Shown: piece after piece, positions 2,848 to 37,540 of the stretch | Numbering within the stretch: the first letter of the stretch is position 1 | How the letters are laid out: each line of letters starts with the position of its first letter | Origin: Candidatus Woesearchaeota archaeon | GTDB lineage: Archaea; Nanobdellota; Nanobdellia; SCGC-AAA011-G17; GW2011-AR17 | NCBI GenBank assembly: GCA_964411565.1 | Contig: CAYPLB010000005.1 | Location: 24,536-88,535, forward strand | DNA length: 64,000 nt | Direction: 5' to 3' | The notes under the pieces: model-generated | Told to the model about the DNA's origin: nothing | Seen by the model: only the letters and a program-made list of their open reading frames with translations | The model's database searches: none | Program-made: the position numbers and the translations under genes

Positions 2848-3783
2848 ATGCATATTGAAAAAAGAAAAGAAAAAAATAAAATCAAATACTATTTATCTCA
2901 TTCTTATAGAGAAGGAAAAAAGGTTCATAAATTTAGGAAATATTTGGGTTTAGATTTAAAACAATCAAAACTAAAAGAAAGAAAAGAAATTGCTGAAAAA
3001 CTAATTCTAGAAGAAATTCATAAATATAACATCATAAAAGATCCTTTAGAGTTCGAACTTTCAGAAGAACAGATAAAAGAAATAGAAAAAATAGAAGCAA
3101 AAATACCTTTAAAAGTTAAACACCTTTCAAAAAAAGATTGGGAACTATTCTCTGAAATATTTACTTACAACACAAATGCTATTGAAGGTAGTCAATTGAA
3201 TCTTAAAGAAGTTAAAAATATTCTTGAAGAAGACAAATGGCCTGATAAATCTAAAGAAGACATTGCTGAAACTTATGGTGTCGAAGAGGCCTTAACTTAT
3301 ATTAGGGGAACTAAAGAACATATAAACCTAGATTTAATTAAGAAGATTCATAAAATTGTTTTTAAAAATTCAAAGAGTTTTGCTGGAAAACTAAGAAAAA
3401 AAGGGGAAGATGTTGTAGTTAAAGATAGTAAAGGAAATATTGTTCATGAGGGTGCACCTCAAGAAAGAATCAATCACTTATTAAAAGAATTAATTAATTG
3501 GTATAACAAAAATAAGAATAGATATCCTGCATTAGTTCTTGGAGCTGTTGTTCATAACCAATTTGAGAATATTCATCCATTTGGAGATGGGAATGGGAGA
3601 GTTGGAAGAATCTTATTAAATAATATTTTTTTAAAACAAGGATTACCACCAATTAATATTGATTTCAAAAATAAAGCTGAATATTATAGTTCTTTAAAGG
3701 CTTATGAAAATAAAGATCTGAAGCCTACTATTAAGCTTTTTATTAAGGAGTATAGTATTCTTAAGAAAAAATTGAAGAAGTAG
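2848..3783 (+). CDS. Fic family protein (paralog 2)
   Basis: Fic motif HPFGDGNGRVGR. Confidence 0.8.
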   Translation: MHIEKRKEKNKIKYYLSHSYREGKKVHKFRKYLGLDLKQSKLKERKEIAEKLILEEIHKYNIIKDPLEFELSEEQIKEIEKIEAKIPLKVKHLSKKDWELFSEIFTYNTNAIEGSQLNLKEVKNILEEDKWPDKSKEDIAETYGVEEALTYIRGTKEHINLDLIKKIHKIVFKNSKSFAGKLRKKGEDVVVKDSKGNIVHEGAPQERINHLLKELINWYNKNKNRYPALVLGAVVHNQFENIHPFGDGNGRVGRILLNNIFLKQGLPPINIDFKNKAEYYSSLKAYENKDLKPTIKLFIKEYSILKKKLKK

Positions 3784-19124: not shown

Positions 19125-19691
19125 CTATTTAAGTCTTTTCTCTATTTCTTCCCAATTAACATTTTTTAGAAAACTATCAAGATATGCTCTTTTTCCTAAA
19201 CCATAATCCTTAATGAAAGCATGTTCAAAAACATCCATAACTAACAAAGGAATTGCTCCAGCTAGATGTCCACCATCATGTTCATTTATCCAAGTATTAA
19301 ACAATTTTCCATTTACAGGATCATAAGCTAAAATTACCCATCCTATTCCTCTCATACTTGCACCAGCTCTAAAATCACATTCCCATTCACCAAAATTTCC
19401 AAAACTTTCAATAATTTTCTTTCCTATTTTTGAATCTTCATTTAATTTCTTTCCACCATTTACTAAATTACCAAAATATAACTCATGTAATCTCATTCCA
19501 TTAAATTCCCATCCAAATCTCCTTCTCAACTCCGAAAATTCTATACAATTATTAGTCATTACTTTCAAAGTTTTGATTAGTTCATTTGTATTTTTCACAT
19601 ATCCACTATACAACTTAAAGTGGTCTTTCAACATTTCATCTGAAAAACCTTCCATTCCCAATAAATGAGAAAAATCTTTTTCTTCATACAT
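19125..19691 (-). CDS. Fe/Mn superoxide dismutase-like protein (divergent N-terminal metal site)
   Basis: C-terminal DVFEHAFIKDYG corresponds to SOD DVWEHAYY; the N-terminal HH-x-KHH is degenerate (HFKLYSGYV). Confidence 0.6.
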   Translation of the reverse strand: MYEEKDFSHLLGMEGFSDEMLKDHFKLYSGYVKNTNELIKTLKVMTNNCIEFSELRRRFGWEFNGMRLHELYFGNLVNGGKKLNEDSKIGKKIIESFGNFGEWECDFRAGASMRGIGWVILAYDPVNGKLFNTWINEHDGGHLAGAIPLLVMDVFEHAFIKDYGLGKRAYLDSFLKNVNWEEIEKRLK

Positions 19692-19704
19692 TTTTTCTTC
19701 CTCC

Positions 19705-20262
19705 TTAAATTTTTCCTATTAAATCAACACCTGGACTTAATGTTTCCATTCCAGGCATCCAACTTGCAGGACATACTTTTCCATTACTATCTCTAACAAA
19801 TTGTGCAGCTTGTATTTTCCTAAGTAATTCTTTAGAATTTCTTCCTATACTATTATCATGAATCTCAGCAGCTTTAACATTACCATCTGGATCAATAATA
19901 AAAGTACCTCTCAATGAAACTCCTTCATCTTCTATATAAGTTCCATAAGCTTTTGCAACTCTTCCTGTAGGATCTGCTAACATTGGAAATTTTATTTTCT
20001 TTATTGTTTCAGAACTATCATGCCAAGCTTTATGTACAAATGCTGTATCTGTACTAACACTAATAATTTCGACATTAAGATTCTTAAAATGTTCATAATG
20101 ATCTGCCAATTCTCCTAATTCAGTTGGACAAATAAAAGTAAAATCTGCTGGATAGAAAAATAACACAACCCACTTTCCTTTATAATCTTCTAATTTTATT
20201 TTACTTATGTCTCCATTATAATATGCATCTTCTACAAAATTTACTGCTTTTTCATTTATCAT
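19705..20262 (-). CDS. Peroxiredoxin (AhpC/TSA 2-Cys family)
   Basis: Peroxidatic Cys context FTFICPTE; a C-terminal Cys is also present. Confidence 0.8.
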   Translation of the reverse strand: MINEKAVNFVEDAYYNGDISKIKLEDYKGKWVVLFFYPADFTFICPTELGELADHYEHFKNLNVEIISVSTDTAFVHKAWHDSSETIKKIKFPMLADPTGRVAKAYGTYIEDEGVSLRGTFIIDPDGNVKAAEIHDNSIGRNSKELLRKIQAAQFVRDSNGKVCPASWMPGMETLSPGVDLIGKI

Positions 20263-20265
20263 TTT

Positions 20266-20625
20266 TTACTCCTTTAACAAAGATTCAATCTTTGATTTTA
20301 ATGCTGGTTTAGGCAAAAAACCTGTGATTCTATTAATCTCTTTACCATCTTTTATCAAAACTAATGTTGGAATACTTCTAACTCCATATTCATTAGCAAT
20401 TGAATTATTCTCGTCTATATTTACCTTAGCAAATTTTAGTTTTCCTTCAAAATCTTCACTAAGTTCTTCAAAAACTGGTGCAATCATTCTACATGGTCCA
20501 CACCATTCTGCCCAGAAATCAATAATAACTGGTAACTTTGAATCTTTTACTTCTTTTTCATAATTATTTTCATTTACTTCATTTACTGTCATTTTAATTT
20601 CTCCCACAATCCTTACAGATTCCAT
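20266..20625 (-). CDS. trxA: Thioredoxin
   Basis: WAEWCGPC active site. Confidence 0.8.
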
Positions 20626-20986
20626 TGAATATTACATTTACACATTTTGCTTCAAATCCTTTTACATTAATTTTTTTTAATGCATACTTAGAAATTTCTT
20701 CTTGAAATACATCCATAATTTTTCCACATTCATTACAAACACAATGTTGATGTTTACATAGATCACCATCAAAGTGGAACTCATTATTAATTTCCAACTT
20801 AAGAATTTCACCATCTTCTGCTAAAATATTTAAGTTTCTATAGACAGTACCTAAACTAACATTAGGTATGTCATTTTTTACACCACTATAAACCATTTCA
20901 GCTGTTGGATGCGTCTTCACACTCTTTAGATAATTCAATATCTTTTGCCTTTGGAAACTTATCCTTCTTCGTCTATTAGGAATCAT
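20594..20986 (-). CDS. Fur family metalloregulator (PerR-like)
   Basis: N-terminal [14 protein letters not shown]; C-terminal [11 protein letters not shown] ... CKDCG metal sites; located in an operon with sod, prx and trx. Confidence 0.7.
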
Positions 20987-21060
20987 TACTAATTAAGAAT
21001 AATTACTACTTTATAAGTTTTTCGAATCTATAATATAATAAAAAAAGAATTATTCTAGTT

Positions 21061-21177
21061 TAAATGGTTTTATTTTACCAGCTTTTAAATCTTCTAAACC
21101 TTGTACTAATTGTTTAATTAACTCATTTTGTTCTTTTAATAATTTTAATTCATTACCATTCTTCTTCATATTAATAA
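21061..21177 (-). CDS. Small ORF (39 aa) downstream of the RelE-like gene, possibly its partner
   Basis: GGAGG lies 8 nt upstream of the ATG; product MKKNGNELKLLKEQNELIKQLVQGLEDLKAGKIKPFKLE; not in the ORF track. Confidence 0.3.
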
Positions 21178-21209
21178 ATACCTCCTTATTATATTTAAAT
21201 ATTTTGTTT

Positions 21210-21541
21210 TTAATCATTTTCGAAATTTTTTATATAATTTTTAAAATATCCTAATTTTTCTTTTATATCATTAATTATTTTATCTTGAATTTTTTTATTA
21301 CTTACAGAAACTAATAAAACAATAAGTTCATCTTCATATATTAAATAATATAGTCTAAAATTTTTAATTTTTAATTCTCTAAAAAATATATATCCTAAAG
21401 GCTTACCTCTACCATAAGGATTATCCTTTAATTTTAATATTTGTTTTTTAAAATATTTTTGTAAATTTTTTGGAAATTTTTTGGAATAATTTTTCTAAAA
21501 TTTTCATCAAAATCATTAGATTCAAAAATTTTATACTTCAT
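21210..21541 (-). pseudogene. RelE/ParE-family toxin gene carrying a frameshift in a poly-A tract
   Basis: Minus-strand frame 1 gives MKYKIFESNDFDENFRKIIPKNFQKIYKNILKNKY*. The adjacent frame continues KLKDNPYGRGKPLGYIFFRELKIKNFRLYYLIYEDELIVLLVSVSNKKIQDK..., the hallmark RelE/ParE core. The frames switch within the A6/T6 run near 21440-21450; absent from the ORF track. Confidence 0.55.
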
Positions 21542-21620
21542 ACACTCATTTGACTATGATAAATTAAAAAGAATTACTTTAAAAAAACTGAAAAATTTTC
21601 AACATTTATGAAAAAAAGAA

Positions 21621-21869
21621 TTATTCTTCACTTTCTTCAACTTTAATTGCCTGTCCTGGACAGATTTCTGAAGCTTCCTTAGCATTTTTTGGATCTTCAG
21701 TTTCTAAAACCCAAACTTCTTTCCCATCTTCATCCTTTTTTACAGATTCTTTTAACTTAGAGATATAAGTTTCTTCATCCATTTCAAATAATTCTGCTTC
21801 TACTCCAGCACATGCACCACATCCAATACATTTCTCTGGGTATAATTTTATAGTATACTTTTTTGCCAT
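21621..21869 (-). CDS. Ferredoxin (single 4Fe-4S cluster type)
   Basis: CIGCGAC...CP motif in an 82-aa acidic protein. Confidence 0.7.
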   Translation of the reverse strand: MAKKYTIKLYPEKCIGCGACAGVEAELFEMDEETYISKLKESVKKDEDGKEVWVLETEDPKNAKEASEICPGQAIKVEESEE

Positions 21870-22017
21870 AACACAATTTCATTTCTATAAGTATATAAAA
21901 TTAACTAAAAAAATGTTACTTTCTAACTTCTTATCATACTAAATCACTCCAATAGAAAGATTAATAAACACTCAATTTTCTAGCCAGTTGGCAATAAATA
22001 TAAAAAGGTTTTAAAAA

Positions 22018-22707
22018 ATGAATAAAATAATAAATAGAATATTTGTATTATTTATATTAATGCTGTTTGTTTTTAGTAATTTTGTAATGGCAGCAGAGAC
22101 AAATGATACATTTTTTGATGTAACTGCTTCAGAGGAGCAGAGAGAATATATTATGATAGATTTAATGGAACTTCAAGATAGTGATCTTTTTGTTGAATAT
22201 GTGTCAATGTTTGAAGGTCAATATGATGCACAGTTTGTTTATGATATTCCTAATTCTGTAATTAACTATGAGATTATTGATGAGAGTGATTTATTAATTA
22301 CTGTTGAGTTATTAGGAATTGATGCTATCATGCAGGATTGGCAAAATATTGTTGATTCTATGGTTATATATGGTGAAGTTAAGGGATATGTTACATCTAG
22401 ACCTCTTAAAATAGTAGGACATGTTACTTCAAGAGAGCTTACTCCTGATGAATTAGAAGATTTAGGTACAATATCACGTGATAAAAATGGTAAAATAATA
22501 ACTTCATCAGATGATGATGATGATGATTTTTGGCATGATCCTGAACTTCCAGATTATATACTTGTAAAGATAGTTAATGAAAATGATATTTATTATGTTT
22601 CATTAGATTTTTATCTTTATGTTTTAGAATCAAGTATAAATCAAAATTTGTCTTCAGAATATGAAAGTTTAGTTTCAGCTAATATTGTTGAAGTTTTTGT
22701 TTATTAA
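22018..22707 (+). CDS. Secreted hypothetical protein
   Basis: Signal peptide MNKIINRIFVLFILMLFVFSNFVMAA; poly-Asp tract. Confidence 0.5.
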   Translation: MNKIINRIFVLFILMLFVFSNFVMAAETNDTFFDVTASEEQREYIMIDLMELQDSDLFVEYVSMFEGQYDAQFVYDIPNSVINYEIIDESDLLITVELLGIDAIMQDWQNIVDSMVIYGEVKGYVTSRPLKIVGHVTSRELTPDELEDLGTISRDKNGKIITSSDDDDDDFWHDPELPDYILVKIVNENDIYYVSLDFYLYVLESSINQNLSSEYESLVSANIVEVFVY

Positions 22708-22778
22708 CTTTTTTCTTTTTTTCAGTTATGTTCAAAAAAGCAAAACCTTTTTTAATACTTAACACCCAAATATAGAAA

Positions 22779-37390: not shown

Positions 37391-37540
37391 TGGGACCGCA
37401 GGGATTCGAACCCTGGACACCTAGATATCTGAGAACAGTTCAAATAAACAAATTCATTTGATCTTCAGTTTCACTATGCTATTTTAAGCAAACTAGTGCT
37501 CTCCCAGACTGAGCTACGGTTTAATGCTCTTTTAAGACCC
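37391..37540 (-). tRNA. Intron-containing tRNA (anticodon unresolved); a ~60-nt intron in the anticodon region and a probable second small intron after acceptor nt 3
   Basis: Minus strand reads ACCG-TA-GCTC-AGTCTGGGA-GAGC ... GTGTC-CAGGG-TTCGAAT-CCCTG-CGGTCCC-A. The 5' acceptor strand continues only as ACCG. The GGG needed to pair with the 3' CCC lies 17 nt upstream (GGG|tcttaaaagagcattaa|ACCG). Confidence 0.55.

Follow-up and report, generated by a model that had tools for sequence, protein, structure and literature searches.

The 64-kb window analysed here (28.5% guanine plus cytosine, GC) is a stretch of contig CAYPLB010000005.1 that carries, on its minus strand between the ferredoxin and fur-like genes, a toxin-antitoxin locus in which the toxin gene, encoding a protein of RelE/ParE fold, is spread over two reading frames (21541-21210). 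The locus is very probably a recently acquired, toxin-first type II module of the RelE/ParE lineage with a toxin that was inactivated by an 11-nucleotide (nt) tandem duplication. In the history that we propose, a 554-nt toxin-first minicassette would have inserted between the ferredoxin and fur-like genes and duplicated 17 nt of its target. It would have brought a toxin of about 106 amino acids (aa), with a RelE fold and two extra C-terminal helices, that most likely cleaves mRNA on the ribosome, and a 39-aa antitoxin, a helix with a basic C-terminal tail, that most likely binds the toxin via a conserved LxxSLEDxKxG(K/R) motif, like the C-terminal peptide of RelB. The duplication, at codons 20-26, would have shifted the frame and ended translation after 35 residues, and with no start codon of its own in the core the toxin would be knocked out next to an intact antitoxin gene. 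The features of the locus, all on the minus strand, are as follows.

21611-21627, minus strand: upstream copy of the 17-nt direct repeat AGAATAATTCTTTTTTT, with the last ferredoxin codon, its stop and an oligo-T (T7) tract
21057-21610, minus strand: strain-specific insert of 554 nt with leader, toxin gene and antitoxin gene, delimited by blastn breakpoints against sister loci
21542-21610, minus strand: AT-rich leader of 69 nt within the insert, read from the sequence
21583-21575, minus strand: TATA-like TTTAAAGTA, about 38 nt upstream of the toxin ATG, read from the sequence
21434-21541, minus strand: toxin gene, N-terminal frame (frame A), ATG at 21541, 35 codons and TAA at 21436-21434, reading MKYKIFESNDFDENFRKIIPKNFQKIYKNILKNKY up to the stop
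21210-21494, minus strand: toxin gene, core frame, 94 open codons and TAA at 21212-21210, 95.7 bits on the family hidden Markov model (HMM), E-value 7.5e-29
21463-21486, minus strand: perfect period-11 repeat TTCCAAAAAATTTCCAAAAAATTT, read as the frameshifting lesion (+11 nt)
21484-21474 and 21473-21463, minus strand: the two CCAAAAAATTT units, a perfect 11-nt tandem duplication
21181-21185, minus strand: GGAGG, Shine-Dalgarno-like, 11 nt upstream of the antitoxin ATG, read from the sequence
21050-21169, minus strand: antitoxin gene, ATG at 21169, 39 aa reading MKKNGNELKLLKEQNELIKQLVQGLEDLKAGKIKPFKLE, 33.8 bits on the family HMM, at the conserved partner position
21040-21056, minus strand: downstream copy of the 17-nt direct repeat, with the final antitoxin codon, its stop and a T7 terminator-like tract

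The interrupted toxin gene

The original prediction, made from the letters of the window, had described a RelE/ParE-like protein encoded in two minus-strand frames that change within an A6 run. Both of the peptides that it quoted were present in the minus-strand sequence, and the gene is indeed interrupted, as frame A stops after 35 codons. The core frame reads ...KLKDNPYGRGKPLGYIFFRELKIKNFRLYYLIYEDELIVLLVSVSNKK...FEND before its stop, in full ...PKNLQKYFKKQILKLKDNPYGRGKPLGYIFFRELKIKNFRLYYLIYEDELIVLLVSVSNKKIQDKIINDIKEKLGYFKNYIKNFEND. No open reading frame (ORF) had been listed for the core, as was correctly observed, because this frame contains no ATG, GTG or TTG. The find goes beyond chance: when all six frames of the 64 kb were scanned with the toxin family HMM, matches were found only at 21213-21494 (95.7 bits) and at 21437-21553 (13.1 bits, E-value 0.004). 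Authentic toxin residues in frame A are limited to about the first 22, and its KIIP aligns with the KIIP of the homologues P0001 and P0002. The core retains nine out of nine invariant and eight nearly invariant family columns, and no further lesion was found in the gene. The gene is otherwise undamaged and has lost none of its conserved residues, and the lesion is therefore recent.

Relative to frame A the core frame is at exactly -1, and because both frames are open over a 58-nt overlap zone (21494-21437), the sequence alone does not fix where the break lies. The CCAAAAAATTT duplication (21463-21484) falls within this zone; for units of 10-15 nt, the 64 kb holds no other perfect tandem duplication. 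Removal of one copy yielded a 106-aa protein with the frames joined as ...KIIPKNLQKYFKKQILKLKDNPY..., and the junction, ...FRKIIPKNLQKYFKKQILKLKDNPY..., matched 'KIIPNSLQDY' of P0002. The resulting protein had the same KIIP-16 residues-NP(Y/F) spacing as P0001 and P0002, aligned with both without a gap across the N-terminal region, and was top-scoring against all five of the nearest homologues. Every possible junction was also scored with an HMM of 54 intact family members; skipping 11 or 14 nt gave the best scores (107-111 bits), and a one-base repair or a -1 slip gave 101-102.6 bits. Thus, the frameshift is best explained by the 11-nt tandem duplication, which fits the length, sequence and HMM of the homologues better than a change in the A6 run does.

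An exact-protein look-up of the flanking fur-like and ferredoxin genes found 13 contigs in JGI, ENA and Logan assemblies; their identity to the window was 99.7-100% across as much as 6.4 kb. Between ferredoxin and fur (651 bp), duplication included, all 11 assemblies that span the region matched the window at 100% identity, and the option of a sequencing error was therefore rejected. A near-identical intact toxin allele was also sought on metagenome contigs, where only relatives of at most 60% identity were found. The TATA-like TTTAAAGTA in the leader is a putative archaeal promoter.

Automated gene calling performs poorly at this locus. The full-length toxin gene was called by no pipeline in loci L079-L091, and three called just the 35-aa N-terminal fragment. 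The pipelines also disagreed on lengths in these loci, with 39 or 55 aa for the antitoxin, 108 or 130 aa for the fur-like gene and 108, 113 or 119 aa for the thioredoxin gene; the DNA behind the differing calls was identical, or at most two mismatches or one gap apart.

The 39-aa partner

Downstream of the toxin core the original prediction had placed a 39-aa ORF, coupled to a GGAGG motif, as a possible partner antitoxin. Both the ORF and the motif were found, although the gap between the toxin stop and the ATG is 40 nt and not 32, and the ORF ends at 21050, 11 nt beyond the region to which the pair had been assigned. An alternative start at 21217 would give a 55-aa product and overlaps the toxin 3′ end. 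In the wider toxin family described below, most partners are encoded convergently, and an HMM of these convergent partners found a sole match in a six-frame scan of the 64 kb, at 21053-21229 (33.8 bits, E-value 1.7e-9). In the closest relatives, L001, L003, L005 and L068, a 37-53-aa ORF follows directly after the toxin on the same strand and contains the same ...K(E/Q)(Q/E)NEFLxxLxxSLEDxKAG(K/R)... motif. When the codirectional mini-proteins were compared with the convergent partners by hhalign, the probability was 95.6% (E-value 1e-8) over 25 C-terminal columns. Judged by conserved flanking ORFs, hhalign and HMM, the 39-aa ORF is the antitoxin of the split toxin. The order is toxin-first as in HigBA, with the toxin at 21541-21210 and the antitoxin at 21169-21050 on the same strand, and there is no ORF upstream of the toxin within the insert, both as had been predicted.

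The AlphaFold2 (AF2) model of the 39-aa product alone consisted of one helix, residues 4-29, and an extended basic tail, with a predicted local distance difference test (pLDDT) score of 91. Pfam and NCBIfam searches of the 39-aa and 55-aa products gave no match, and a PDB profile search with the antitoxin family gave only spurious matches (E-value at least 0.2). The Phd/RelB/HigA-like fold that had been envisaged for the product was thus not borne out: by the AF2 model and the Pfam and NCBIfam searches it has no DNA-binding domain and is not of the Phd, RelB or HigA fold. We infer that the 39-aa protein is a bare toxin-neutralising module, and the locus presents a single-helix protein of this size as a cognate partner.

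In some of the closest codirectional relatives, the toxin is followed by a tandem pair of small antitoxin-like ORFs, namely in L001 (4318-4434 and 4431-4532), L003 (753-866 and 848-973) and probably L005 (3312-3458 and 3406-3567). The window has a single antitoxin ORF, and the insert ends exactly at the antitoxin C-terminus.

Fold and likely activity of the toxin

The reconstructed toxin scored above the cut-off of 23 bits for Pfam PF05016, as had been anticipated, with 24.7 bits when the duplication was removed and 26.3 bits in the version with an A7 run; the model was also matched by 26 of 53 family members. The AF2 model (pLDDT 94.2) showed a RelE fold, in which N-terminal helices pack on an antiparallel sheet, with two extra C-terminal helices at residues 79-105. 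The best Foldseek matches were Mycobacterium tuberculosis RelE1 and RelE2, Thermus thermophilus RelE, Escherichia coli RelE, YoeB and HigB2, with E-values from 8e-6. By model score and fold, the toxin is thus assigned to the RelE/ParE superfamily. The best NCBIfam match was TIGR02683, but at 23.3 bits against a cut-off of 62.85 the toxin is not a member of that family. The invariant residues R51, E52, R59, Y61, K79, K80 and Q82 are basic or acidic for the most part and lie on the sheet and at the start of a helix. E. coli RelE has the catalytic residues K52, K54, R61, R81 and Y87; in an hhalign comparison with it the probability was 17% and R59 stood opposite R61, and an alignment inspected by eye showed no evident equivalent of RelE Tyr87. 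By analogy with the structural matches, the toxin would most likely be a ribonuclease that cleaves mRNA on the ribosome.

Several known systems resemble the module. As in RelBE (E. coli RelE, M. tuberculosis RelE1/RelE2 and Pyrococcus horikoshii aRelE-aRelB, PDB 1WMI), the toxin is small and basic and the antitoxin is a protein with a helical C-terminal segment as its likely neutralising part; for E. coli RelBE there is a structure of the RelB K47-L79 peptide bound to RelE (2KC8). In contrast to RelBE, the toxin here shares 14-20% sequence identity with these proteins and has two extra C-terminal helices, the order is toxin-first, and the antitoxin lacks a ribbon-helix-helix (RHH) domain. A canonical RelBE/ParDE operon was rejected, as there is no ORF upstream in the insert and the partner lies downstream as a single helix with no RHH match. 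The toxin gene comes first on the same strand as in HigBA-type systems (Vibrio cholerae HigB2-HigA2, Streptococcus pneumoniae HigBA and TIGR02683, 'upstream of HI1419'). HigA antitoxins have a helix-turn-helix (HTH) domain of the XRE type, and HigBA proper was rejected because the 39-aa partner has no HTH (XRE) domain match and is a helix and tail by AF2. A short antitoxin without a DNA-binding domain is known from PaaA2 of the E. coli O157 PaaA2-ParE2 system, one of the ParDE modules, and the antitoxin here is alike in this respect. The gene for PaaA2 precedes that of its toxin and shares an operon with a separate regulator, PaaR2, whereas the 554-nt insert holds no regulator gene and has the toxin first.

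The insertion between the ferredoxin and fur-like genes

The 17-mer AGAATAATTCTTTTTTT occurs in only two exact copies in the window, both at the boundaries of the insert. Sister genomes were defined by a Fur protein in the same 90%-identity cluster, and their flanks share 88-89% nucleotide identity with the window. The blastn alignments with the sister loci L092-L099 break exactly at 21611 and resume at 21056, and in L092-L094, L096, L097 and L099 the fur gene follows 63-66 nt after ferredoxin with one AGAATAATTCTTTTTTT copy in the spacer. The duplicated 17-mer contains the end of the antitoxin ORF, from the last A of its Leu codon through Glu to the stop. Because the antitoxin homologues end in ...KPFK or ...KEFK, the 'LE' tail is read as a product of the junction, its final Glu and stop coming from the duplicated ferredoxin 3′ end. 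On this sequence comparison, insertion with a 17-nt target duplication is the simplest reading. The insertion is younger than the split from the sister lineage, and the inactivation of the toxin came after it.

Neither a transposase nor an attC-like repeat nor significant terminal inverted repeats were found in the insert and at its ends; short inverted repeats of TAAATG near both ends, seen by eye, were judged not significant in DNA of 25% GC. An origin as an integron cassette was considered because archaeal integron cassettes often carry toxin-antitoxin genes (PMC9668308). This was rejected, as the antitoxin ORF reaches the 3′ boundary and leaves no room for attC, and there was no suitable inverted repeat in 21057-21610.

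According to the original prediction, the locus would be only a dead remnant if the frameshift was confirmed and relatives lacked the locus. Both were found, and the locus is a dead or dying remnant, yet one of a genuine, recently inserted module. The usual fate of toxin-antitoxin modules is that the toxin often decays and the neighbouring antitoxin is retained. As a decaying addiction module the locus itself is ordinary; its value is as a textbook case, at base-pair resolution, of toxin-antitoxin acquisition followed by decay in a small archaeal genome.

The insertion parts ferredoxin from fur and adds a new T7 terminator-like tract ahead of fur. A second strain-specific segment of 822 nt (21914-22735) is missing from the sister genomes by blastn breakpoints, and contains an ORF on the plus strand (22018-22707); its 229-aa product has a hydrophobic segment at the N-terminus and the acidic stretch DDDDDD, and it matched no Pfam model. 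The ferredoxin neighbourhood looks like an insertion hotspot.

Alternative explanations

Slippage by one base within the A6 run (21444-21449), either as a mutation or as a sequencing or assembly error, would imply an intact protein of 110 aa reading ...PKNFQKIYKNILKKQILKLKDNPY... The run lies inside the zone that is open in both frames, one added A joins them, and this reconstruction passes Pfam at 26.3 bits. However, the product is four residues longer than the closest homologues and requires a four-residue gap in the alignment with P0002, it scored 101.1 bits on the family HMM versus 107.3 bits for the protein with the duplication removed, and its score was lower against all five nearest homologues. 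Such a slip would also leave the unique perfect 11-nt duplication unexplained, and as a sequencing error it is excluded by the 11 identical assemblies, so that we regard it as highly improbable. A toxin gene that is still functional, through -1 frameshifting or transcriptional slippage at a slippery heptamer or with the 11-nt repeat as a reversible phase-variation switch, is very unlikely as well. Candidate heptamers for recoding are A_AAA_AAT at the first repeat copy and A_AAA_AAC at the A6 run; CCA AAA AAT and TTA AAA AAC are canonical X_XXY_YYZ heptamers in frame A, and the trans-frame peptide would read ...IIPKNFPKNLQK... The -1 relation of the two frames and the undamaged core with all its conserved residues would suit a functional gene, and two-copy tandem repeats can contract by slippage. 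However, no stimulatory RNA structure was found downstream (minimum free energy -12.9 kcal/mol, z-score -0.37 versus shuffled sequences), A-rich heptamers that look slippery are expected from composition at 28.5% GC, and two copies of the repeat were present in all 11 assemblies with no heterogeneity at the consensus level. Recoding is also no trait of the family, as 60 of its 78 toxin genes are single ORFs and 18 are disrupted at varied sites. Conditional expression of a two-frame toxin, by slippage at the duplicated A_AAA_AAT to give 110 aa with a PKNF insertion or by reversible gain and loss of the 11 nt, is in our judgement hardly credible; if true, either mechanism would make the locus a toxin-antitoxin switch under the control of recoding or phase variation in a DPANN-like archaeon.

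The target of ParE is gyrase, and it is possible but unlikely that the ancestral activity of the toxin was ParE-like gyrase poisoning, or some other activity, rather than RelE-like ribosome-dependent mRNA cleavage. The Pfam match is to a model named ParE_toxin, the equivalent of RelE Tyr87 is not conserved as judged by eye on the alignment, and the two extra C-terminal helices have no counterpart in RelE. However, PF05016 spans RelE as well as ParE, the top structural matches of both programs were the mRNA interferases RelE, aRelE, HigB2, YoeB and HigB, and the charged invariant residues lie on the sheet and helix start, as expected for a ribonuclease site. For the 39-aa ORF, a chance origin in AT-rich DNA might be suggested by its shortness, its lack of a Pfam or NCBIfam match and the long 11-nt Shine-Dalgarno spacing. 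This reading is effectively refuted by the conservation data: homologous ORFs directly after the toxin in four relatives, a C-terminal motif that matches the partner of 58 further loci (hhalign 95.6%, E-value 1e-8) and the sole partner-HMM match in the six-frame translation of the window (E-value 1.7e-9).

A module inactivated by an 11-nt duplication thus remains our preferred explanation, and some observations weigh against parts of it. The HMM gain of the 11-nt repair is about 5 bits, and the surrounding sequence is imperfectly 11-periodic (5.3 copies at 78% by Tandem Repeats Finder); this loose local periodicity would favour replication slippage. The 11 assemblies represent one near-clonal population, so that they bear out the sequence without adding evolutionary depth. 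At 17%, the hhalign match to E. coli RelE is too weak for a confident placement of its catalytic residues and leaves catalytic equivalence putative, and a search of PDB sequences with the toxin family profile gave no match at an E-value of 10 or below. The polarity of the insertion could formally be the reverse, in which case the sister lineage would have lost the segment between the 17-mers by a precise deletion.

The wider toxin family

The wider family matters more than the locus, in that it is large, almost entirely from DPANN archaea, poorly annotated, unseen by PDB sequence searches and mostly composed of convergent genes with overlapping 3′ ends. It was found at 67 loci in GTDB genomes, nearly all of them DPANN, and in at least 1755 protein clusters, mostly without a source name or labelled 'hypothetical protein'. 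For the comparison 78 loci were used, namely L001-L070 (n = 70) and eight metagenome loci. A partner ORF with the same C-terminal motif flanks the toxin in about 66 of the 78. The usual partner is a convergent ORF of 40-50 aa on the opposite strand (58 of the 70 loci and six of the eight metagenome loci), with the consensus xxETVTIxKxEYxxLKxxxxxDxDLxxQxxxSLEDxKxGRxKRxx, and its 3′ overlap with the toxin is usually 4 nt (19 loci), 17 nt (17), 8 nt (6) or 32 nt (3). Two examples are given.

L048: toxin stop at 3278; partner at 3247-3381, minus strand
L056: toxin stop at 3228; partner at 3212-3346, minus strand

The partners vary at the N-terminus. Those of 68 aa, in five or six loci (L027, L045, L053, L057, L058 and L062), have an N-terminal Pfam MazE/AbrB domain (35 bits against a gathering threshold of 24.7), and the partner in L054 has an RHH-like N-terminus and is 77 aa long from the first suitable Met. 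The antitoxin is thus modular: the same C-terminal motif is combined with AbrB/MazE, with an RHH-like segment, with a short METVTISKEEY or, in the subclade of the window, with nothing. The partners fused to MazE/AbrB or RHH follow the classic antitoxin design of a DNA-binding domain and a toxin-binding tail. Compared to the window, the toxins of the wider family are 35-50% identical and share the invariant residues and the C-terminal antitoxin motif, but the antitoxin is convergent, overlaps the toxin 3′ end and carries an extra METVTISKEEY, AbrB or RHH N-terminus. The window belongs to a small FRELK subclade with codirectional mini-antitoxins.

In TADB 3.0, protein-protein toxin-antitoxin pairs are described as lying on the same DNA strand (PMC10767807), and convergent pairs would presumably escape its operon-based prediction step. 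A literature search for convergent type II modules or RelE families of DPANN archaea found no description of either.

The toxin gene is a single intact ORF in 60 of the 78 loci, and the 18 disrupted genes show frameshifts, in-frame stops or contig ends at varied positions. About 15 of 75 assessable toxin genes are broken by a frameshift or an in-frame stop, mostly in the Lys/Glu-rich N-terminal third (L009, L010, L013, L020, L035, L044, L061, L067-L070, L074, L075 and L078). The search patterns target the C-terminal core, so that ascertainment bias may contribute to this N-terminal clustering, as well as the mutability of A runs or errors in metagenome-assembled genomes.

Host and neighbouring genes

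The host is an archaeon: among the genes of the window are those for a diphthamide synthase and a split RNA polymerase B subunit of the Rpb2 type, and near-identical proteins in NCBI bear the label '[archaeon]' or '[Nanoarchaeota archaeon]'. The distribution of the toxin family suggests a DPANN lineage. The cassette lies inside a codirectional oxidative-stress cluster (19125-21869, minus strand) of genes for ferredoxin, a Fur-family regulator, thioredoxin, peroxiredoxin and an Fe/Mn superoxide dismutase. In the sister genomes L092-L094 and L096-L098, a 72-aa DUF5654 gene is found between the superoxide dismutase gene and a 148-aa gene (for example at 4887-5105 in L092), and this gene is absent from the window lineage. 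A tRNA match of 126 nt at 37395-37520 (minus strand; Rfam 31.9 bits) was missed by ARAGORN, and its length suggests an intron-containing archaeal tRNA.

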